The notes under the pieces: generated by a model
Seen by the model: only the letters and a program-made list of their open reading frames with translations
Told to the model about the DNA's origin: nothing
The model's database searches: none
Assembly: GCA_965228855.1 (NCBI GenBank)
Contig: CBDDIJ010000002.1
Span: 32,001-96,000, forward strand
Source: Candidatus Obscuribacterales bacterium
GTDB lineage: Bacteria > Cyanobacteriota > Vampirovibrionia > Obscuribacterales > Obscuribacteraceae
Reading direction: 5' to 3'
Length of the DNA stretch: 64,000 nt
Shown here: positions 32,844 through 63,924 of the stretch, in pieces
Numbering within the stretch: the stretch's first letter is position 1
Layout of the letters: the number at the start of each line of letters is the position of its first letter
Translations under genes and position numbers: made by a program

Positions 32844-32880
32844 AGCCAATCGCAACCCGAAGATTCCTATGGAGAAACGC

Positions 32881-34251
32881 ATGAAACTCTTTTCGAATAT
32901 CACGAGGATGCTCGTGATCGCGGTTGTCGCGCTGCTCGCAATGGCCCCGTCCATGGCGTCAGCGCAGACCACCCCGTACCGGCCCAATTTCAGCGCCGGC
33001 ACGCAGGTCTACATCGACCCGGCAGTGGCGAATCATCCGGACTTTCCGGTGTCGCTCTCCGGGCTCGAATCCAAGCTCAAAGACGCCGGCTCCGCGCACG
33101 GTGTCGTCTTCATCTCGGTCGCCGTCCAACAAACGACCGAGCGTGGCGGCGGCAATCTCGCAGCCGATTGGCTCGACCAGCTGCTTCTGCGGTGGGGCGG
33201 CGCCAACGGTTTCCCCTCGGACAACTATGTCCTGATGGTCTGGATGCGTAGCGCATCGAACCCGTCGGAAGGCTGGGTCGCGGTCAACGCCGGCGCCAAC
33301 CTGAAGACGTACGGTCTGGGCAAGAGCATGCTCGATGCCGCTGACGGTCCGGTCGTTCCGGCTGTGCGCAAGTACATGCCGCAGGATCCCAAAGGCGCCT
33401 TCCTCGGTATCGCGGGCGGTGTCAACAAGGTCGTCGACGACTACAACGCCGCGCAGCAAAGCGCCAAGGACCGCTCCGACTTCATGGGTCAGCTGCCGAT
33501 CTACTTCCTGATTCTGCTTGTCGCCGGCGGCGCCGTCGCCTTCTTCGTCGTGCGCTCCAAGGGCGCCAAGGACCTCAAGGCGCAGGTCGAGCCGCTCTTC
33601 AACGAGTGGAACGAGAAGATGGAGTCCGCCAACGCGCTCTACCTCAAGCTTCGCGGTGGCTACCTGGGCTTCATCCAGGACCAGGGCGACTGGAAGGGCA
33701 AGTTCTCGGGCTCGACCAAAGCCCAGTACGAAGCGGCTCTCACCAACTTCGCCGACTTCTCTGCCCGTCGTTCGAAGGCGAACGCGCATCTCGAAGAGGC
33801 GCACAAGCTCTGGCAGAAGGGCGACTACAAGGGCGTGCGCGAGATGCTGCAGAACCAGACCATCTCGGTCACCGGTGCGGACATCGCGCTCGAGGACGCC
33901 ACGCTGTTCGGTGGGCTGGTCGTGAAGAACGACTACAAGCCGTCCGAGCTGCTCAACTCGATGGCGACGCTGTTCGACCAGACCAACAAGGCGCTGGCCG
34001 GCATCATGAAGTCGCTCAACGAGGCGCTCGCCGCCGGTTCGGAGCTGGACGCCGTGCAGGCGGACATCGAGATGAAGTGGGCGCAGGCGGGCGACAAGTC
34101 GTTCGCTCCGCACAAGGCCGAATTCGACGCCATCAACGTCGAGGAAGTCCAGGTGCGGCTCACCTACAAGAGCGACCCGCTCGCCGGCAAGGCAGCGATG
34201 CTCGCCCTCGTCGCTCGCGCCAAGACGATCCAGTCGAAACTGGCAGCCTGA
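32881..34251 (+). CDS. Membrane protein: signal peptide, TPM-like domain, TM helix, helical domain (short paralogue of 38915-41914)
   Basis: RBS ggaga; signal peptide ending ASA-Q; TM LPIYFLILLVAGGAVAFFVV; many motifs shared with 38915-41914. Confidence 0.7.
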   Translation: MKLFSNITRMLVIAVVALLAMAPSMASAQTTPYRPNFSAGTQVYIDPAVANHPDFPVSLSGLESKLKDAGSAHGVVFISVAVQQTTERGGGNLAADWLDQLLLRWGGANGFPSDNYVLMVWMRSASNPSEGWVAVNAGANLKTYGLGKSMLDAADGPVVPAVRKYMPQDPKGAFLGIAGGVNKVVDDYNAAQQSAKDRSDFMGQLPIYFLILLVAGGAVAFFVVRSKGAKDLKAQVEPLFNEWNEKMESANALYLKLRGGYLGFIQDQGDWKGKFSGSTKAQYEAALTNFADFSARRSKANAHLEEAHKLWQKGDYKGVREMLQNQTISVTGADIALEDATLFGGLVVKNDYKPSELLNSMATLFDQTNKALAGIMKSLNEALAAGSELDAVQADIEMKWAQAGDKSFAPHKAEFDAINVEEVQVRLTYKSDPLAGKAAMLALVARAKTIQSKLAA

Positions 34252-38914: not shown

Positions 38915-41914
38915 ATGTTGTTCAGAAATCTCACGCATGTGCGCGGTGTCCTGGTAATGGCTCTGCTCCTTATCATCTCGGTGATAGGTGCACAGCCGGC
39001 ATTCGCGCAGAACCAACAGACGTGGCTGCCGGACTTCAGTCCGGACCGGCACGTCTACGTCGATCCCCTGCTTTCCAACAACCGGCAGGCGCCCGTGAAT
39101 CTGAGTTCCATCGAATCCGATCTCATCCGCGAGGGTGAGCGGCACGGGCTCAAGGTTTACGTGGTCGCCACGCAGCAAGGTTCCGACCTGCTGCAGTCCG
39201 ACATCCCCGGTCGAGACGCGCTCGACAAGCTCGTCTTGAAGTGGCAGTCGCGACCCGGTTTCCCGTCCGACAACTATCTCGTCGTCATGTGGGTCCGCCG
39301 AGCGGACAATCCCAATAAGGGTTCGGTTGCAGCCAACGGCGGCAACTGGTTCTCCGATTGGAACATGACCGGCGCCTATTTCTCGGACCCGCAGAACGGT
39401 CCGGTCATCCCCAACCTGCGCCGCTTCATGCCGCAGGACCCGGCCGGCGCCTTCGTCGCAGTTGTCCAGACGGTCAACAGCGATATCGACACCATCAAGG
39501 CTCGCCAGGCGAAAGCCGAGGCGGACCGCAAGCTCCAGGAGATGATGCCGTACTATCTCGGCGGCGGCGGGCTCGCCATCGCCTTCCTCGGCACGCTCAT
39601 CTGGCTGCTCATGCGCAACTCCTCGCGGCGCAAGCGCGCTCAGAAGCTGATCGCCGACTTCGAGACCAGCCTCAACAGCGCCAACGAGCTCTATCTGAAG
39701 CTGCGCGACTATCGCGGTTTCCTCACCGATCAGGGTGACTGGAAGTCGCGTTTCAAAGGTCGCACGCTCTCGACGTTCACGGCGGCCTGCAAGGACTTCG
39801 CCGACTTCTCCGTTCGGCGTAAGGTCGCCAACGACACACTGGAGGCGGCGAAGAAGGCGTTCGAGCGCAATCGGTTTCCGTCCATAAAAGGTCTGACCGA
39901 ATGCGAAGAGCTGCTCAGCAAGCGTGTCATCACCATCACCGGTGACGACCTGCCGCTGGAGGAAGCGACGCTGTTCGGCGGTCTGGTCGAGAAGGCGGAC
40001 TACGAGCCGGGCGCGCTGCTCAACGCCATGTCGGAACTCTTCGACAAGACGAACAAGGCGCTGTCCGGCATCGTCAAGGCGTTCGAAGGCGCGCGCCAGA
40101 ACAAGACCGACGTCGAACATCTCGACGCGCAGATCGACGCCCAGCGCAAGGACATCGAAGCCGCCGAACTCACGATGGCGCCCTACGAGGCAACCATCGC
40201 CGAGCTCAAGCGCGGTCAGGCGGCGTTCGTCGCCATCCTGTCCTCGGACCCGCTCGAAGCTTTCAGCGGGTCGGAAACCGTGGAAGCCGGCTTCAAGGCT
40301 CTGGGCGAGAAACTCATCCGCGCGATCGGCATCAAGAAGTCGCTGCCCGCGGTGAAAACCCAGATCGACGGCTCCGAGACCAAGGCAACCAAGAAGCGCG
40401 GCGAAGACGCGGTCTACCTGTACGTTCTCGGCGAGGGCGAAAGCCAGCCGCAGACCGCGCAGGGCGCCAAGTTCATGCTCGCCGAGAAGGGCTCCAATCC
40501 GGATACCTTCGTCGCCGATGCTCGCGGCAGCCTGAAGAACGCGCACGAACTCGTCTACGCCGCCAAGCTGGACGAAGCCGTGACCGCGAAGGAGAAGGCG
40601 GAATCGCTCGCCAAGCAGGCAAGCGACCTGGTGGACGACATCGTCGCCGCCAAGGCCTGGGTGGAAACCAAGGTCACGCCGGCGCGCAACACGCTCGCCA
40701 GCCTCCGCACCGAGCTTCCCGACGCCGACACGGCTGTCGTGGAGCTCAAATCGGACTTCCTGGCCAAAAACTATGGAAGCCATCCGACTGCGGTCGACGA
40801 GTCGCATGCGACCGAGAAGGGCACTCCGAGCCTGCTCGCACAGGTAAAGGTGCTCTACGACGCGCAGAACTTCGTCGGCGCCCGCGCGCTCGTGAAGAGC
40901 ACGCAAGCCGCGCTCGACGGCGCCCGCACCAAGCTCACGCAGGCTCACGCCCTGCTCAAGGAGCTGCGCCGCCTGCGCCAGGACAGCCGCGACACCGTGG
41001 CGACGTGCCTGACGACCGCTCAGCGCCTGCGCGCCAAGCTGCGCGACAACGCCTTCACCACGGCAGCTGCAACCGACAACGCATTCGCCGAGGCCGACCG
41101 CAAGCTCGGTCTGCAGAAGGCGGAAGCGGACAAGAAGATCGCCGATTGGCCGGCGGTCAACAAGGCGGTTCACGAGGTCGTGGCCAGCTTCGATGGTTTC
41201 GACAAGGCGATCGACGCGCAGCGTCGCGCTTACGACCAGGCCAAGGAAGACTTCGCGGTTCTCGACGCAGCCATCGGCTACGCCGCACCGAAGGTCGCCA
41301 ACGACGTCACCACCGACGATACCAAACGGGCGCTCGCGTCCGTGCGGACCGCGCGTGGACAGCTCCAGAACAAGCTCAACACCGCCAAGTCCGACTGGGT
41401 CGCACTCAGCCGCGAGATTGGCGAACTGAAGGCTGACGCGGATGGAGCCAAGGAGCAGGCCGAGCTCGAGATCAAGACCTGTGCCGAGGCGCAGTCGGCC
41501 TACCAGTCGGCAAGCGAGAAGATCAACGAGGTCAACCGCCGGTCATACGGCGAAGGCGTCGATGCGGACCTCTCGACCGCAAACTCGCGCCTGCGCGAGA
41601 GCTCCTCGTACTTCCGCAACAAGGACTACGCCGAGGCGAAGTCGAAAGCCAAGCAAGCCTACAAGGCAGCCGAAGAGGCTGATGATGCAGCCGAGAGCCT
41701 CGCTCGTCGTCGCAAGCGCGACCGCGAAGAGGCTGCGGCAGCTGCGGCTCGCGCTGCGGCAGCCGCCCTCCGCGCCTCGCAGCAACGCAGCAGCGGTGGC
41801 GGTTTCAGCGGTGGCGGCTCGCGTACCGGTGGTGGCAGTTCCGGCGGAGGGGGCTTCAAGTCCAGCTCCGGCGGCAGCAGCTACAGCGGCAGGAGCGGCG
41901 GCGGCAACTACTAG
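38915..41914 (+). CDS. 999-aa membrane protein: signal peptide, TPM-like domain, TM helix, long coiled coil, Gly/Ser-rich tail
   Basis: RBS ggaga then ATG at 38915; signal AFA-Q; TM YYLGGGGLAIAFLGTLIWLL; about 700 aa of helical sequence; tail GGGFSGGG...SGGGNY typical of TPM-family proteins. Confidence 0.72.
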   Translation: MLFRNLTHVRGVLVMALLLIISVIGAQPAFAQNQQTWLPDFSPDRHVYVDPLLSNNRQAPVNLSSIESDLIREGERHGLKVYVVATQQGSDLLQSDIPGRDALDKLVLKWQSRPGFPSDNYLVVMWVRRADNPNKGSVAANGGNWFSDWNMTGAYFSDPQNGPVIPNLRRFMPQDPAGAFVAVVQTVNSDIDTIKARQAKAEADRKLQEMMPYYLGGGGLAIAFLGTLIWLLMRNSSRRKRAQKLIADFETSLNSANELYLKLRDYRGFLTDQGDWKSRFKGRTLSTFTAACKDFADFSVRRKVANDTLEAAKKAFERNRFPSIKGLTECEELLSKRVITITGDDLPLEEATLFGGLVEKADYEPGALLNAMSELFDKTNKALSGIVKAFEGARQNKTDVEHLDAQIDAQRKDIEAAELTMAPYEATIAELKRGQAAFVAILSSDPLEAFSGSETVEAGFKALGEKLIRAIGIKKSLPAVKTQIDGSETKATKKRGEDAVYLYVLGEGESQPQTAQGAKFMLAEKGSNPDTFVADARGSLKNAHELVYAAKLDEAVTAKEKAESLAKQASDLVDDIVAAKAWVETKVTPARNTLASLRTELPDADTAVVELKSDFLAKNYGSHPTAVDESHATEKGTPSLLAQVKVLYDAQNFVGARALVKSTQAALDGARTKLTQAHALLKELRRLRQDSRDTVATCLTTAQRLRAKLRDNAFTTAAATDNAFAEADRKLGLQKAEADKKIADWPAVNKAVHEVVASFDGFDKAIDAQRRAYDQAKEDFAVLDAAIGYAAPKVANDVTTDDTKRALASVRTARGQLQNKLNTAKSDWVALSREIGELKADADGAKEQAELEIKTCAEAQSAYQSASEKINEVNRRSYGEGVDADLSTANSRLRESSSYFRNKDYAEAKSKAKQAYKAAEEADDAAESLARRRKRDREEAAAAAARAAAAALRASQQRSSGGGFSGGGSRTGGGSSGGGGFKSSSGGSSYSGRSGGGNY

Positions 41915-42121
41915 CCTTCGCTCAGCGTCGAGACAAAAATCTCGACGCCAATGTTGTTGTTTAAACCAAAGGAGGCGGTGCAAAACAGCGCCTTCTGTTC
42001 GTAGCGAAATTAAACGGCTTGCCTCGTGGCGAGCCGTTTTCGACTCCAATCCGTCGACTGTTCGGAACCACTCCGGCAGCGACTCAACGACCCAATGGGT
42101 CACACGAAAGGTTCAATCACT

Positions 42122-42880
42122 ATGACACCCGGCACCATCATCACCATCGCCGCCCTCGTCGGTCTCGTCGTCCTCGTCTGGAAGTGGGACGCCCTCCGCC
42201 AGCTGCTCCGCATCAAGGGCAGCCAGGCCGTCGCCTCCGGCACCACCGCCGTCGAGCGCAACAAGGACCGCTACAAGCAGCTCAAGGCACTCCTCCCCGC
42301 CCAGCGCAACAACGTCGCCAACTGCATGGCCACCGTCGATGACGTGACCAAGGAACTCGGCGAAGCCGAGAAGGCCCTGGACACCATCAAGGACGAGTAC
42401 AAGACCGCCACCGAGATGGGCGCCTCCGAAGCCGCTCTCGACACCCTCGGCAAGCGCTTCGAAGCCGGCGAGCAGAAGGTCGACCGCATCAAGGGTCGCC
42501 TCGCCGAAGCCAAGTCCGCCTCCGACGAAGCCCAGACCGCCCTCGATTCCACCATCGAGAGCATCAAGGCCTTCGGCGACAAGATCGAGGACAGCGAGCT
42601 CGCCAGCAACCTGACCAAGGCCCTCGAGACCGCCGCCGCCGCCAAGCAGCAGGCCAAGGACATCAACGACAAGCTCTCCGAGGCCTCGGCCGACTTCGAC
42701 GCCGTCGACCACGACCTCAACGTCGCTCGCGCCAAGAACAAGCTCGGTGACGGCACCGCCGCAGACCGCGAGCTCGACGAGATCAAGAAGAAGGCCGGCG
42801 CCAAGTCGGGCCGCTCCAAGCTCGACGCGCTGACCAAGGGCACCTCCAACCCGCCCGCCGGCGACCAGCCCCAGAGCTGA
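42122..42880 (+). CDS. PspA/IM30 (ESCRT-III-like) protein with N-terminal hydrophobic anchor, copy 1
   Basis: 252 aa; residues about 6-20 hydrophobic (IITIAALVGLVVLVW); the remainder follows PspA helix register by manual alignment. Confidence 0.75.
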   Translation: MTPGTIITIAALVGLVVLVWKWDALRQLLRIKGSQAVASGTTAVERNKDRYKQLKALLPAQRNNVANCMATVDDVTKELGEAEKALDTIKDEYKTATEMGASEAALDTLGKRFEAGEQKVDRIKGRLAEAKSASDEAQTALDSTIESIKAFGDKIEDSELASNLTKALETAAAAKQQAKDINDKLSEASADFDAVDHDLNVARAKNKLGDGTAADRELDEIKKKAGAKSGRSKLDALTKGTSNPPAGDQPQS

Positions 42881-43234
42881 TCGGCATCGTCGTCAACGCT
42901 GAGCTGAACAGCTCCGCTTGAGCTGACTCGCCACTGGCATCAGCATGAGCTGAATTGCCCTCGGCGCCCAGCAGTTCAGAGTTCCGCTGCTGGCTGGGCT
43001 TCCATGCTCAGCCAGCAGTTCCAATCAGAAATAAGCGGTATCACATCCGGTACCGCGCCCTTGTCAGGGTCGCCTATCGCATCACGCCTCGCGTGGTGAG
43101 AGTTTTCCGCGGCACAGCCGTCGCTTGCCGCAGTCTGAGCCTGGCATCGGCTCGTCCGTCGATGCCTTTCCAGGCACGAGCATCCCGCTCTGCCTCACAG
43201 GACCAACGTGTCCAATCTGACTGGAGAAATCAAC

Positions 43235-43993
43235 ATGACCCCCGGTACCATCATCACCATCGCCGCCCTCGTCGGTCTCGTCGTCCTCGTCTGGAAGTGG
43301 GACGCCCTCCGCCAGCTGCTCCGCATCAAGGGCAGCCAGGCCGTCGCCTCCGGCACCACCGCCGTCGAGCGCAACAAGGACCGCTACAAGCAGCTCAAGG
43401 CGCTCCTCCCCGCCCAGCGCAACAACGTCGCCAACTGCATGGCCACCGTCGATGACGTGACCAAGGAACTCGGCGAAGCCGAGAAGGCCCTGGACACCAT
43501 CAAGGACGAGTACAAGACCGCCACCGAGATGGGCGCCTCCGAAGCCGCTCTCGACACCCTCGGCAAGCGCTTCGAAGCCGGCGAGCAGAAGGTCGACCGC
43601 ATCAAGGGTCGCCTTGCCGAAGCCAAGTCCGCCTCCGACGAAGCCCAGACCGCCCTCGATTCCACCATCGAGAGCATCAAGGCCTTCGGCGACAAGATCG
43701 AGGACAGCGAGCTCGCCAGCAACCTGACCAAGGCCCTCGAGACCTCCGCCGCCGCCAAGCAGCAGGCCAAGGACATCAACGACAAGCTCTCCGAGGCCTC
43801 GGCCGACTTCGACGCCGTCGACCACGACCTCAACGTCGCCCGCGCCAAGAACAAGCTCGGTGACGGCACCGCCGCCGACCGCGAGCTCGACGAGATCAAG
43901 AAGAAGGCCGGCGCCAAGTCGGGCCGCTCCAAGCTCGACGCGCTGACCAAGGGCACCTCCAACCCGCCCGCCGGCGACCAGCCCCAGAGCTGA
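43235..43993 (+). CDS. PspA/IM30-like protein with N-terminal hydrophobic anchor, copy 2
   Basis: Same protein as copy 1 except one A-to-S change (LETSAAAK); RBS ggaga. Confidence 0.75.
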   Translation: MTPGTIITIAALVGLVVLVWKWDALRQLLRIKGSQAVASGTTAVERNKDRYKQLKALLPAQRNNVANCMATVDDVTKELGEAEKALDTIKDEYKTATEMGASEAALDTLGKRFEAGEQKVDRIKGRLAEAKSASDEAQTALDSTIESIKAFGDKIEDSELASNLTKALETSAAAKQQAKDINDKLSEASADFDAVDHDLNVARAKNKLGDGTAADRELDEIKKKAGAKSGRSKLDALTKGTSNPPAGDQPQS

Positions 43994-44360
43994 TCGGCGA
44001 CCAGGCGTTCGGCTGGCTTGCTGTAAGGCAGGCCGGTCGACGCCAAAACGCCACCAGCATGTTCGTCTGATATGCAAACAAGCTGAGTGGCTCAGTTGAA
44101 AGTACGTTGTTCAGCTGAATTCCGCTGCCGCCTGGGCTTCACGCTCAGTCGGCAGTTTGGTTGCGTATCGACACCGCACCCAGTGTCACCGCATGCTCGC
44201 ACGCGACTTGCGAGTAGTCGAGTTTTCTAAACCGTTCCCAGGTTTGCGAACGGTCGCCTCAGTTCACTTCGCGTCGGCAACATCGCCGGCGTTTTCCGGC
44301 ACGAGCATCCCGCTCGCGCTCCAACGGACCAAGTGTCCAATCTGACTGGAGAATTCAAAC

Positions 44361-45119
44361 ATGACCCCTGGCACCATCATCACCATCGCCGCCCTCGTCG
44401 GTCTCGTCGTCCTCGTCTGGAAGTGGGACGCCCTCCGCCAGCTGCTCCGCATCAAGGGCAGCCAGGCCGTCGCCTCCGGCACCACCGCCGTCGAGCGCAA
44501 CAAGGACCGCTACAAGCAGCTCAAGGCGCTCCTCCCCGCCCAGCGCAACAACGTCGCCAACTGCATGGCCACCGTCGATGACGTGACCAAGGAACTCGGC
44601 GAAGCCGAGAAGGCCCTGGACACCATCAAGGACGAGTACAAGACCGCCACCGAGATGGGCGCCTCCGAAGCCGCTCTCGACACCCTCGGCAAGCGCTTCG
44701 AAGCCGGCGAGCAGAAGGTCGACCGCATCAAGGGTCGCCTCGCCGAAGCCAAGTCCGCCTCCGACGAAGCCCAGACCGCCCTCGATTCCACCATCGAGAG
44801 CATCAAGGCCTTCGGCGACAAGATCGAGGACAGCGAGCTCGCCAGCAACCTGACCAAGGCCCTCGAGACCGCCGCCGCCGCCAAGCAGCAGGCCAAGGAC
44901 ATCAACGACAAGCTCTCCGAGGCCTCGGCCGACTTCGACGCCGTCGACCACGACCTCAACGTCGCTCGCGCCAAGAACAAGCTCGGTGACGGCACCGCCG
45001 CCGACCGCGAGCTCGACGAGATCAAGAAGAAGGCCGGCGCCAAGTCGGGCCGCTCCAAGCTCGACGCGCTGACCAAGGGCACCTCCAACCCGCCCGCCGG
45101 CGACCAGCCCCAGAGCTGA
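44361..45119 (+). CDS. PspA/IM30-like protein with N-terminal hydrophobic anchor, copy 3
   Basis: Protein identical to copy 1; RBS ggaga. Confidence 0.75.
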   Translation: MTPGTIITIAALVGLVVLVWKWDALRQLLRIKGSQAVASGTTAVERNKDRYKQLKALLPAQRNNVANCMATVDDVTKELGEAEKALDTIKDEYKTATEMGASEAALDTLGKRFEAGEQKVDRIKGRLAEAKSASDEAQTALDSTIESIKAFGDKIEDSELASNLTKALETAAAAKQQAKDINDKLSEASADFDAVDHDLNVARAKNKLGDGTAADRELDEIKKKAGAKSGRSKLDALTKGTSNPPAGDQPQS

Positions 45120-45236
45120 TCGGCGCCTGACTGACTCCGGAAACATCAATCGCGGTTGATGTTTCACCGGCTGGCTGCGTAACTGATTGGAATAAACTTC
45201 CGTCGGTTCCAGCCAGCCGGTTCGGTCGTCAGTCTT

Positions 45237-45279
45237 TCGAAACGGTTGTAGGACCTGGTCCTTCAGTCGTTTCGATTTT
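45237..45279 (+). terminator. Probable intrinsic terminator after the third PspA-like gene
   Basis: tcgaaacggttg...cagtcgtttcga hairpin followed by tttt. Confidence 0.55.
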
Positions 45280-45496
45280 CAAACCAAGTCTGCTAAATGC
45301 CCTAGTAGAAGATTTCGATTGTGTCAATGACAGAGCGACGAAATCTGCTAAATCCGTCGCTATGGGATCGACGGAGCTGGTTCTACAATCGGTCTGTCAA
45401 TGACACAGCGACGGAATCCGCTAAATCCGTCGCTCTAGGATTGACACTGCAGGTCGGCAAAAGAAACACCGGCAGGCACAGCAGTCCAGCCCGTCC

Positions 45497-47568
45497 TTAC
45501 TGCTTGATCACCCAGCGCAACCAGCGCATCGCTTCGGCAACTGCAGTCGCCGAAGCCGGGCAGCCACGCGGCAGCTGCGGTCGGTTTCCGTCAAACATTT
45601 CAGAAATCGAATTCAAACAATCCTCGCTCGAGATATGGTCGAAGATAGGCTGCCAGAGCAGCCGAATGCGATTCACCGTTTCAGGCATCGGCCCGAAAAC
45701 ATTAACGAGCGCATCGCAATACTGCCCAATCAACCAGGGATACGCAGTTCCCTGGTGCCTCGACAAATCCCTGTGATACGGATCCGGATGGGCGAGCCCG
45801 CACCCAAAAACGCCTTGATAGCTCGGGTCCGAAGGCGACAAAGTCCTCACTCCCATCGGAGTAAGTAACTCCTCCTCCACCACCCGCAGTATCGCTTTTT
45901 CCTGATCGACGGAAACGCACGATACGGCAACGACACTGCCAGCAGCTGATTACAGCGGACACTATCGTCCTTCCTCTTACTCTGCGGCACACCCGTATCG
46001 ATAATATCGAACAGGCAAGAGCGCTCCTCGTTCCAAAACTTGCTCATCGAATTCTTGGCTTGCTCAGCCAGTTTCCTCACTCGCGTCGCATCGTCGTGCG
46101 TGACGGTTTCGGCAAAAAAGGCTACTGTTTCCAGGAAGTTATACCAGAGAGCACATAGCTCCACAGCCTTGCCGGAGCGCGGCGTAATCGGCATGCCCTC
46201 TACTTTGGTGCCCATCCAGGTGAATGCTCTGTCCTTATCTGCACATCGAAGCAAACCGTCATCCGGGTCGACGGAAATCCCCTGGTTCGTTCCGTTCACA
46301 AAATGGTCGATTGCGGAAATCATCTCCGGAAGCTGCTCGGCGACCAACTCCTTGTCCTGAGCAACACGGTAATATTTATATAGAGCCCATCCCCACCACA
46401 GAGTCACGTCAGCAGCTTCATAATCGAATCGCGGCTCAGTTTCGCCACTTTTAAGATCCAGCACCCAGTTCGGCATGATACCGTTTTTAATACCAGTCGC
46501 CTGGGCGCGAAAAATGTCTTTAGCGGCATCGAACCGCCGCGTCGAAACAGTCAATCCCGGCAGAGCCAGCATGGCAGCGCGTCCGCCGCTGTTATACCAG
46601 GGATATCCTTCTATAACTGATTTCATCGGTTCATCGTTCCTAGTCGTAACAAGAAACTGATCGCATGCAAGCAGCATCATATCTGCCCTCTGCGAATTAT
46701 CCAGATTTGACCGATCGATAAGTTCCTTTTGACGCGCCACCACCTCTTTCAGAGCAACGCCACAATCCGGCGCCTGCAGAGGCTTTTCATAACTCGCACC
46801 CAAACAAAATGACTTGTCAGCCTGCAACTTCGCCGAAACAGACCCAACTAAATAAAGATCCTCAGTATTCGGAAGTCCCCTGATAGACTCGATCGGCCAG
46901 TCGAAATCCCACCACCACTGCTTCTGCGATTCATATTTGCCATCACCCCAGGTCAGGCACAGACGGCTGTTCTCATCCAATATAATCACGCTCTGATTGG
47001 GAGATACAAACTGCGCATAGGTTTTATCCGCCGACCCATGCAGCTCTCCATGCATATCTCGGAAGCCCACCAAAAATTTGCAAGTCAATTTGACGTCGTT
47101 GCGCGCCGAATCATCTTCCGGAATCCAGTGATATCCCATATGCACTTGATCGGTGCCCCACGGGTGTACCAACTGTTTCACCAAATAGTTTCCATCAAAC
47201 TCGAAAACCCAGGTCGGACAGGGCAGTGGCGTAAACGACTCCATGAACTTATAACCTGTCGGTGATACCACGCCTGATTCCCAATGGTTGGTAGACAGCT
47301 CATAGTCTCGCCCGTTGATTCGCAACACTTCTTCCACGCGAGACAAGATCAGATGCCGGTTCACCATCGGCTTGACAGCAGAAACCAATACCGCATGATA
47401 CCGCCGGCGGTTCGCGCCGGAGATCGTCCCCATCGAAAAACCGCCCAGTCCATTCGTCACCAACCATTCGCGGTTATCCGGCCTGTCGCGCGACGGATAG
47501 ACGACGGGGATCTCGTAATTGAGCTCCGGATATTGAGATTTCAGCCAGCCGATTATGCCGAAAGTCAT
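45497..47568 (-). CDS. Glycogen debranching enzyme (amylo-alpha-1,6-glucosidase) with a single frameshift near 45,913
   Basis: REWLVTNGLGGF, RRYHAVL, GYPW, TPRSGKAVELCALWYN, RCNQL; continues in another frame as LLTPMGVRTL...HQGTAYPWLIG...SEMFDG...PRGC. Confidence 0.88.
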
Positions 47569-47795
47569 GCCCAACTCTCGCTAAAAAACGCGTGCCGTTT
47601 CATCCAATTTTTATGCGCCATAAGTCCCAGGTTGGAATCGTCGAATCTCTTGTGGTACTTCGTTCCCGGCAGAAACTTTTTCCAACCTCAAATACATAAA
47701 GCTTGGCGCCGGAGCAGTTTAAAAGTTACCTTTCGATTCAAACAAATGCGCCCACCAGCCTACATACGCGATTTCGAAAGCGATACGCCCTGCAA

Positions 47796-61773: not shown

Positions 61774-63924
61774 ATGCTCGATCAAATCCTGGCTCTCTGG
61801 TGGGCGATTCCCGCCGTCATCGCGTTCCTCGCTCTCGCCTTCTTGGCGTTCAAGTGCATCAAGAACATCGGCGGTACCGAAATCGCAATCACCGAGCGTC
61901 AGTTCATCGGCGCCGAACTCCCCCCGAATCGCGCCTACGCCCTGCCCGGCCAAGTCGGCATCCAGGCGCGCTATCTGGCGCCCGGTCTGAAGTTCATCCC
62001 CTGGCCCTTCGTCCGCGTCGTCGAACGCCAGCCGTTCTTCACCGTCGGACCGGATGAACTCGGCATCGTCACCTCGACCGACGGCGAACCGCTGCCCCAC
62101 GGCCGCATCTTCGCCGAAGACAAGGCCGAGGAGAAGCACGACAACTTCCAGGATCCGCTGGGCTTCATCAACAACGGCGGCGTCCGCGGCGAGCAGCTTC
62201 GCTATCTGACCAACGGTCAGTGGAAGCTGCACAGCAAGCTGTTCCAGGTCCGCAAGATCAAGAAGACGTACATCCCCGACGGCAAGATCGGCGTGGTCTA
62301 CGCTGCCGACGGCGCCTCGCTGACCGCTGGTCAGCTGGTCGGTCGCTCGGTCGCCGGTCACGACAACTTCCAGAAGGCGGAAGTCTTCCTGCGCAACGGC
62401 GGTCAGAAGGGTCCGCAGGTCGACATCCTGCTGCCCGGTACCTACAACATCCACACCGGCATGTTCAAGGTCGAGATCAAGGACGCGATCGCGATCGAGG
62501 ACGGCAAGATCGGTGTCGTCGAGGCGCTCGGCGGTGAGGCTCTGCCCAAGGGCGACGTCATCGCGGATTCGCCGGACGGTCACTCGAACTTCCAGGACGG
62601 CGAAGCCTTCCTGAAGAACGGCGGCAAGCGCGGTCCCCAGACCTCGATCCTGGCGCCGGGCCGTTACTACGTGAACCCCTACCTGTTCCAGGTGACCACG
62701 CGTCCGCAGACGACGGTGTCGCAGGGTCAGGTCGCGGTCCTGATCGCCAACCACGGCAAGGACCCGTCGGAAGACGTCGTGCTGGACGGCGAGGGCAACC
62801 CCGCTCCGAACCAGCCGCGCAAGGACAACGGCCCGCTCGAGGGTCAGGCGAAGGACGGCGCCGAAAACCACCTGAACGACGGCAACCGCACCCGCCACGT
62901 CGTGCCGGCCGGCTACCGCGGCATCCAGAAGGATGTGCTCGGACCCGGTCGCTACAACATCAACCCGCTCGTTCACCAGGTCGTGATCGTTCCGACGACC
63001 ACGCGCTCGCTGCACTGGGCGCAGGAAGGCGAGAAGGGCGCCATCGCGTTCGATCCGTTCGAGGTCGTGTCGCATGACGGCTTCTCCATGAAAGTGGAAG
63101 TGCGCTGCCAGTATCGGGTCCTGCCCGAGAACGCGCCGTACGTCATCGCCAAGCTCGGCTCGATCGAAGAGCTGGAGCGCAACGTCATCCACCCGCAGAT
63201 CGACGGCATCTTCCGTGCCGAGGTCTCCAAGTCGCCGGCGATCAACTACCAGCAGTCCCGCGCCGACGAGCAGCGCAAGGCCGAGGCGGAAGTCCGCACC
63301 GACCTCGCCAAGTACAAGGTGGAAGTGGTCTCGGTCATGATCACGAACATCCACCTGCCCGAAGAGCTGATGAAGACGACGCAAGAGCGCAACCTGGCCG
63401 AACAGCGCAAGTCGATGTTCGACGCCCAGGAGACTGCCGAGAAGCGCCGCATCGAGCTCGAGCAGACCAAGGCCAAGGCCAACAACCAGGCGCGCATCGT
63501 CGAAGCCGAGACCGGCATCACGGTCGCCGAGCACGTCGCCGCGCAGAAGGTCAAGACCGCCGAAGGCGAGGCGAAGCAGATCCGTCTGACTGCCGAAGCC
63601 AATGCGGACGCGACCAAGCTGGCCGGTGACGCCGAAGCGACCGCGAAGCGCGCCGTCGGTGAAGCGACCGGTGACGCCTACAAGCGTCAGGCGGACGCCA
63701 TGGGTCAGGGCAACATCGCGCTCGTCGAGGCCCTCAAGGTCGTCGGCGAAGCCGGTCTGCGCATCACCCCCGACATCGTCGCCGGCGGCAGCGCTGGTGG
63801 CGACGCGGGCGGACTCGGCGCGGTGCTCGTCGCGCTGCTCACCCAGCAGATCGCAGCCAGCCAGAAGGGCACGGCTCCGACCACCGAAGCGGCTCCGGCT
63901 GCCGAAGGCTCGGACGCGAAGTAA
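61774..63924 (+). CDS. SPFH/flotillin-like membrane protein with tandem N-terminal repeats
   Basis: N-terminal TM; repeated HxNFQ..F..NGG..G.Q...L.PG.Y; band-7 core (SHDGF...); AEGEA-rich coil; ITPDI C-terminal motif. Confidence 0.88.
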   Translation: MLDQILALWWAIPAVIAFLALAFLAFKCIKNIGGTEIAITERQFIGAELPPNRAYALPGQVGIQARYLAPGLKFIPWPFVRVVERQPFFTVGPDELGIVTSTDGEPLPHGRIFAEDKAEEKHDNFQDPLGFINNGGVRGEQLRYLTNGQWKLHSKLFQVRKIKKTYIPDGKIGVVYAADGASLTAGQLVGRSVAGHDNFQKAEVFLRNGGQKGPQVDILLPGTYNIHTGMFKVEIKDAIAIEDGKIGVVEALGGEALPKGDVIADSPDGHSNFQDGEAFLKNGGKRGPQTSILAPGRYYVNPYLFQVTTRPQTTVSQGQVAVLIANHGKDPSEDVVLDGEGNPAPNQPRKDNGPLEGQAKDGAENHLNDGNRTRHVVPAGYRGIQKDVLGPGRYNINPLVHQVVIVPTTTRSLHWAQEGEKGAIAFDPFEVVSHDGFSMKVEVRCQYRVLPENAPYVIAKLGSIEELERNVIHPQIDGIFRAEVSKSPAINYQQSRADEQRKAEAEVRTDLAKYKVEVVSVMITNIHLPEELMKTTQERNLAEQRKSMFDAQETAEKRRIELEQTKAKANNQARIVEAETGITVAEHVAAQKVKTAEGEAKQIRLTAEANADATKLAGDAEATAKRAVGEATGDAYKRQADAMGQGNIALVEALKVVGEAGLRITPDIVAGGSAGGDAGGLGAVLVALLTQQIAASQKGTAPTTEAAPAAEGSDAK

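Follow-up and report, generated by a model that had tools for sequence, protein, structure and literature searches.

A lineage-restricted, membrane-anchored PspA/Vipp1-like protein encoded in tandem arrays in Candidatus Obscuribacterales

Results

Architecture of the locus

The window analysed here is a 64,000-nucleotide (nt) stretch of the genome of 'Candidatus Obscuribacterales bacterium' (8.2 Mb, ~50% GC; host genome, G000). The sources of the nearest proteins carry the same name, which identifies the host as the non-photosynthetic relative of cyanobacteria supposed in an initial annotation of the window. Within it, a gene for a 999-amino-acid (aa) protein, termed the partner, is followed by three copies of a gene for a 252-aa helical protein, termed TM-PspA. 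As judged from sequence comparison and a structure model, these genes form a conserved two-gene module encoding a genuine membrane-anchored form of bacterial ESCRT-III that is restricted to one lineage. Coordinates are positions in the window unless a contig is named.

All four open reading frames (ORFs) listed by the initial annotation are present, each on the + strand. The partner gene (38915..41914, +) encodes a signal peptide (residues ~1-31, with an AFA motif), a predicted extracytoplasmic α/β domain of ~165 residues (~32-195) with a marginal likeness to TPM, one transmembrane (TM) helix (~214-233), a long helical rod of ~710 aa predicted to be cytoplasmic, and a Gly/Ser-rich tail with a final aromatic residue (GGGNY). 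Between it and copy 1 lies a terminator-like 9-bp hairpin followed by a T-rich run (41925..41948, +); matches to such hairpins number 13 in the region against a mean of 9.6 (standard deviation 2.9) in shuffles, so that no enrichment is seen. TM-PspA copy 1 (42122..42880, +) is divided into a signal anchor (1-20), helix 0 (H0, ~23-40), H1 (43-98), H2-H4 (103-209) and H5 (213-238). A spacer of 354 nt (42881..43234, +), with a GGAG ribosome-binding site at its 3' end, leads to copy 2 (43235..43993, +), in which Ala-to-Ser at residue 171 is the sole protein change. After a second spacer of 367 nt (43994..44360, +), 91.6% identical to its orthologue in the same-genus genome G043, copy 3 (44361..45119, +) encodes a protein identical to that of copy 1.

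Integrity and homogenisation of the array

The three copies differ pairwise at 7, 4 and 5 nt and at a single residue of the protein, and the 8.2-Mb genome contains no TM-PspA matches beyond them. In the read graphs of runs X1 and X2, the repeat forms one 752-nt unitig at a depth of 21.7 and 21.5, against 7-8 for the unique spacers (~3:1); the two runs are possibly one data set or source sample and maybe not independent of the assembly, and no piece of either graph crosses the entire array. Three copies are also present in each of the same-genus genomes G043, G046 and G047. The unique spacers, the depth ratio and the recurrence in three congeners rule out an assembly artefact, and the array of three proposed at the outset is real.

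The coding copies are >99% identical, while the spacers of the host array are 70.6% identical to each other and ~92% identical to their G043 orthologues (global identities below 15% were disregarded as alignment failures). Differences fixed in all three copies number 99 against G046 and 154 against G047, with zero position-shared variants; three such variants are found between the host and G043. Fourteen fetched arrays hold two to three intact copies, and in a tree the copies mostly cluster by genome. These sequence patterns are most simply read as gene conversion within a standing array, and independent recent triplications may apply to the more distant pairs.

TM-PspA as a divergent PspA/Vipp1 homologue

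The PspA/ESCRT-III superfamily is defined by a length of 200-250 aa and helices H1-H5, with H1 and H2/H3 forming a hairpin (PMC7619361). When a profile of 54 TM-PspA members is compared with one of 30 canonical PspA/Vipp1 sequences, hhalign returns 96.2% (E 2e-9) over 215 columns at ~13% identity, and the controls (reversed and 20 block-shuffled) reach 5.9% at most. The alignment places W22 opposite PspA F2 and RNNVANCMA opposite RQAVAQAIA and continues through the helix-4/5 region, in agreement with the PspA register that the initial annotation had drawn by hand. With the family hidden Markov model, the best sequence match in the PDB is Vipp1 (E 4e-6, positions 25-237), and the best among the host's other called ORFs is a canonical PspA (E 6e-5). 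The AlphaFold2 (AF2) model (pLDDT 84.5) is predicted in an open conformation with a long hairpin, and Foldseek ranks 1-8 for this model are all Vipp1. H1-H5 and the hairpin are thus present by hhalign, model and fold search alike, bearing out the predicted fold. The three flexible hinges expected for the superfamily depend on alignment depth: the shallow-alignment model breaks at 153-157 and 205-210, and in the deeper model helix 103-209 is unbroken. Taken together, profile comparison and modelling show that the 252-aa protein is a divergent PspA/Vipp1 homologue, with a predicted full-length H0-H5.

The divergence is considerable. The 252-aa protein has no match to PF04012 (PspA_IM30) at the 33.9-bit cut-off, and only 2 of the 54 members reach E ≤0.1 (best 0.0034). 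With a shallow 17-sequence alignment, Pfam and PDB sequence searches gave no PspA match and fold matches were weak. In a quick tree of 47 rows, TM-PspA forms a single clade (SH-aLRT 100) whose stem to canonical PspA measures ~3.3 changes per site; the tree omits one PspA row carrying a long extension, and the length of the stem makes the attachment point unreliable. This stem, the absence of any invariant column across the 54 members, and the fact that the best single-sequence Pfam matches are EzrA and other coiled coils, all under the cut-off, would suit a PspA-derived coiled coil that is tethered to the membrane without polymerising, either as an EzrA-like spacer or tether or possibly only as a subunit in complex with the 999-aa rod. 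Such a tether is improbable, given that length, helix order and H5 spacing remain co-linear with PspA/Vipp1 over 215 columns, and the multi-copy dosage set against a single partner gene would be better suited to a polymer than to a 1:1 subunit.

The initial annotation also held that the proteins bear on the evolution of Vipp1, a link that is not retained. The clade attaches unreliably through its very long stem, the host retains canonical PspA on a different contig, encoded by two full-length genes, and the model ends at H5 (238) followed by a short coil, lacking the C-terminal extension with an extra helix described for Vipp1 (PMC11304991).

The N-terminal anchor and helix 0

No charged residue occurs at positions 1-20 of TM-PspA, and the best 19-residue Kyte-Doolittle mean is 2.25, in keeping with the hydrophobic helix originally noticed ahead of H0. 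An N-terminal uncharged run of at least 17 residues, with hydropathy averaging at least 1.6 over 19 residues, occurs in 54/54 members and in 0/30 canonical proteins; canonical PspA, Vipp1 and LiaH are soluble and have no TM helix, a trait that TM-PspA does not share. Across the 54 members, the mean charge is -0.24 before the hydrophobic run and +2.7 after it, with +2 or more after it in 44. Because the charge is neutral to acidic before the run and basic after it, the positive-inside rule supports an N-out, C-in topology, in which the segment is an uncleaved-looking signal anchor and the PspA body is predicted to lie in the cytoplasm. A cleaved signal peptide is unlikely: a basic n-region occurs in 5/54, an AxA motif in 19/54 lies near or within the hydrophobic run and is not conserved, and no lipobox is found in any of the 54. 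The same script recovers the classical signal-peptide pattern in the partner family (basic n-region 18/18, AxA 15/18), and in the choice that had been posed between TM segment and signal peptide this charge and motif heuristic favours an anchor. Residues 22-40 align with PspA helix 0 in hhalign, and the amphipathic moment of H0 is weaker than in canonical proteins (0.53 vs 0.74).

The partner protein and its linkage to TM-PspA

The description of the partner as TPM-like is upheld in part. Its architecture, a signal peptide, a domain, a TM helix and a low-complexity/coiled-coil tail, is a TPM-type layout, and the sequence evidence is equivocal: a PF04536 (TPM) search across the host genome finds no match, and the PF04536/DUF5129 profile finds 1 of 18 partner-family members (E 0.029). 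The domain scores 10% against TPM in hhalign over 75 columns, exceeding all 21 controls, and with a deeper alignment 4.4%, equal to the best shuffle. Atlas similarity to TPM/DUF5129 (0.82-0.83) serves as a lead only, and the TPM identity of the extracytoplasmic domain is marginal.

Of the order's 107 genomes, 34 yielded TM-PspA, and among 251 genomes of the class convincing matches are confined to the host's own family (Obscuribacteraceae level); two matches outside it are weak, partial and in long frames. These counts are a floor, as fragmented assemblies lose repeats, and the copy in G073 runs into an N gap. The partner is present in 17 of 20 fetched loci, and nothing else recurs at that level. 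By hand tabulation, TM-PspA is detected at most 1.5 kb downstream of 38 of 52 near-full-length partner genes (43 genomes), so that the proposed linkage to the 999-aa gene holds across relatives. No conserved regulator, SPFH or zinc-ribbon (YdjG) gene recurs beside the module in the 20 loci.

Two partner paralogues occur in the host. The shorter (461 aa; 32866..34251, +) is 37% identical to partner residues 2-447 and is also found in G043, G046, G047 and others. The longer (1033 aa; L127:15361-18462, that is G000 C2:291361-294462) shows 30% identity and has no adjoining TM-PspA. Short relatives of the partner N-domain, consisting of a signal peptide, the domain, a TM helix and a Gly/Cys-rich tail, occur in other family members (L223 of G060, L225-L242), some of them in tandem.

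A high-GC3 gene class around dnaA

TM-PspA has an effective number of codons (ENC) of 24.1; across the 4340 other called genes of at least 200 codons the minimum is 28.9 and the median 55.6, so that the codon bias is indeed extreme. It is not of the ribosomal-protein type: ribosomal proteins prefer AAA, CAA and GAA, and TM-PspA prefers AAG, CAG and GAG. At C2:62 kb-1.14 Mb of the host, a region that includes dnaA and the skew switch, 227 genes with a GC content at third codon positions (GC3) >0.72 form a class apart, and TM-PspA is its most extreme member. Between the class genes lie dnaA, dnaN and tRNA synthetase genes. The class also occupies the terminal 0.45 Mb of C5, and the two stretches together are covered by loci L118-L137 and L158-L192. 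It is confined to the surroundings of dnaA, where it is interleaved with ordinary genes, and contig C3 has no gene with GC3 >0.70. In sampled stretches of G004, G037 and G040, and weakly in G013, the same class is found near dnaA and not far from it; the array lies 0.09-0.94 Mb from dnaA in G000, G004, G037 and G042. The codon bias therefore marks a separate high-GC3 class, and the constitutive role first proposed does not follow; a state-specific programme is as likely.

Scanned class genes (251) include peptidases, phospholipases, glycosidases, beta-oxidation and tricarboxylic acid (TCA) cycle enzymes and permeases, together with SPFH, TerC, FtsH, Bax-inhibitor, vWA/MoxR, sigma-70, S1 paralogues, a tyrosyl-tRNA synthetase (TyrRS) and a CCA-type enzyme. 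Against 135 of 273 low-GC3 neighbours, counted by hand at E 1e-4 in one scan and 1e-6 in others, vWA/MoxR genes are over-represented (17 vs 0, p = 0.001) and regulators under-represented (1 vs 13). A 'digestive' enrichment was considered and dropped, as the peptidase counts (28/251 vs 9/135) are non-significant (p = 0.20). No convincing class-wide promoter motif was found, and of the runs examined for expression, X18 resembles DNA and X21 yielded no placed reads. The nearest SPFH gene found (61774-63924; 716 aa, ENC 29.5) belongs to the class and lies 16.6 kb downstream of the array.

The class also includes a second multi-copy family of N-terminally anchored helical proteins with very low ENC, with four copies including a tandem pair 97.5% identical (L180:211-1684 and L126:16399-17088, at G000 C2 ~936-937 kb and 270-273 kb; L221:12863-14227). 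It matches phrog_1383 (E 2e-26), and a G013 pair is situated 4 kb from a homologue of the partner. The family looks LemA-like, yet PF04011 and the PDB gave no match, and a LemA identity was rejected.

The composition of the class bears on an envelope-stress repair pair like Bacillus pspA-ydjH, in which the anchor would replace the recruiters and patches would seal damage with no lasting tubules. A PspA with a membrane-bound TPM protein bearing a long coiled coil has been described (PMC11237479), and SPFH, TerC, FtsH, Bax-inhibitor and vWA/MoxR in the same class would fit such a role. Against it stand the two canonical PspA genes already owned by the host and the lack of a conserved regulator or SPFH gene flanking the module; moreover, homogenised two- to three-copy arrays, together with the genome's lowest ENC, seem excessive for a repair factor. 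This explanation is rather unlikely.

Alternatively, the module could have been domesticated from a giant-phage-like or mobile gene pool near the origin, stabilising the membrane or excluding competitors for the element and not for the cell's own life cycle. The accessory DNA of huge phages is described as holding pspA next to genes for SPFH and TPM proteins (10.64898/2026.10.24.761521). In the Atlas, PspA clusters with a viral share of 70-83% come next in proximity, PHROGs 1383 and 200 are matched by class members, and a sigma-70, S1 paralogues, a TyrRS and a CCA-type enzyme belong to the class itself; presence is patchy. Unlike the huge-phage modules, the genes here are chromosomal and near dnaA; the section describing those modules leaves a TM-anchored form unmentioned, and the supplements of that source may bear on phage forms. 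Among terminases, PF03237 was the family searched for, and it is absent in 5/5 genomes. A scan of about half the genes in the region lists no terminase, capsid, portal or tail family among the 251 class genes, which are interleaved with the chromosomal genes named above and include TCA and beta-oxidation enzymes. No TM-PspA member occurs in viral contigs or GenBank phages, and a phage origin of the family was set aside for want of matches in viral collections; a fold search of BFVD returned one unnamed, uninformative match (E 5e-4, root-mean-square deviation 36 Å). A mobile-element function is improbable.

Surrounding sequence and assembly

Positions 1-29500 have 66% GC and carry a peptide ABC transporter, hydantoinase and iol genes, and GC falls sharply at ~29.5 kb. 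In G043, sequence past this boundary runs on into the counterpart of the end of host contig C5. The segment is probably foreign DNA joined to the contig; alternatively, it may be an inserted island. Downstream of the array, a palindromic element of two units (45321-45447; folding z -5.4 as DNA) resembles repetitive extragenic palindromic (REP) or miniature inverted-repeat transposable elements (MITEs) and has 33 genome matches of at least 40 nt, of which 24 fall in the origin region of C2. A glycogen debranching enzyme gene (45497-47574, -) is split into two frames, probably by an assembly error, because X1 and X2 carry one extra base near 45912. Elsewhere in the host genome, contig C4 changes from 28-38% to 61-66% GC within 182 kb, against 50% for the genome, and is likely contaminated or chimeric; tRNA arrays lie at C3:724500-728000 and 1529700-1530700, with 21 and 5 genes called.

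Discussion

The best reading of the module, tentative and slightly short of an even call, is an integral-membrane ESCRT-III-like coat made in bulk. TM-PspA would be a divergent PspA/Vipp1 subunit turned integral inner-membrane protein, with its N-terminus outside and its ESCRT-III body in the cytoplasm. Going by the family, subunits would pack side by side, H5 gripping the hairpin of the neighbour. As each subunit would span the bilayer, a polymer would be possible only as a membrane coat; because anchored subunits cannot assemble off the membrane, the coat is placed on folds of the inner membrane. It would bend this membrane inward, giving tubules or folds with a lumen open to the periplasm; polymerisation would proceed as in PspA/Vipp1 (PMC7619361), and curvature would come through H0, in line with the report that H0 binding drives PspA tubulation (10.1101/2025.06.13.659447). 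The partner, with its periplasmic TPM-like domain, TM helix and cytoplasmic rod, may position or nucleate the coat, as suggested by linkage and by Bacillus YdjH, which interacts with PspA and is required for PspA membrane foci (PMC8581546). The near-identical arrays and codon bias suggest a bulk demand for the subunit in whichever state the high-GC3 class is expressed, in a role distinct from that of the ordinary stress PspA encoded elsewhere.

Compared with PspA/Vipp1 (IM30; PF04012; PDB 6zvr, 7o3x, 7abk), TM-PspA shares the co-linear H0-H5 and the predicted open conformation with its long hairpin, and differs in its signal anchor, weaker H0, low identity, sub-cut-off Pfam score, missing Vipp1-type C-terminal helix and near-identical tandem copies. 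Bacillus subtilis pspA-ydjGHI (YdjH being SIG+TPM+TM, where SIG denotes a signal peptide) likewise combines a PspA-family gene with a secreted-domain/TM/Gly-tail protein, and YdjH homologues with a long coiled coil are described by Ravi et al. (PMC11237479). Here, by contrast, PspA appears self-anchored, the partner lies upstream, is 999 aa long and has a marginal TPM identity, and neither SPFH (YdjI) nor zinc-ribbon (YdjG) genes recur beside the arrays. The SIG+TM+Snf7 protein of Archangium gephyra and the Snf7-RND fusions of Actinobacteria (PMC11237479) are also listed as uniting a bacterial ESCRT-III-type domain with membrane-spanning parts; as described in that source, they differ in Snf7-type annotation, phylum and neighbourhood. 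The same source gives >98% of PspA homologues as single-domain, and its web-app tables may contain TM-PspA forms; the word 'transmembrane' is absent from the available text of PMC7619361. A search of the open literature, with subscription journals mostly outside it, found no description of the TM-PspA family and no paper pairing Obscuribacterales with PspA.

ESCRT-III, PspA and Vipp1 are described as reaching membranes through an amphipathic helix and partner proteins. If every subunit spans the bilayer, the mechanics would change, as the polymer could neither assemble nor leave without the membrane, and TM-PspA would offer a natural test of the purpose of H0 and recruitment. Surveys based on PF04012 miss TM-PspA because the family is invisible to Pfam. 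The bimodal gene class around dnaA is likewise one for which no description was found. A broader proposal, unlikely as it stands, is that Obscuribacteraceae run a second gene programme close to the origin, set apart by codon usage, a sigma factor and S1 proteins of its own. Its most abundant product would be a bilayer-spanning ESCRT-III building standing coated inner-membrane tubules, for example for a feeding or host-associated stage. If true, it would mean a membrane-integral ESCRT-III coat and undescribed internal membranes in the sister class of the thylakoid-bearing cyanobacteria. In conclusion, the dosage indicated by the near-identical arrays and the genome's strongest codon bias would suit a major structural protein of this uncultured lineage, and a visible membrane feature would then be expected.

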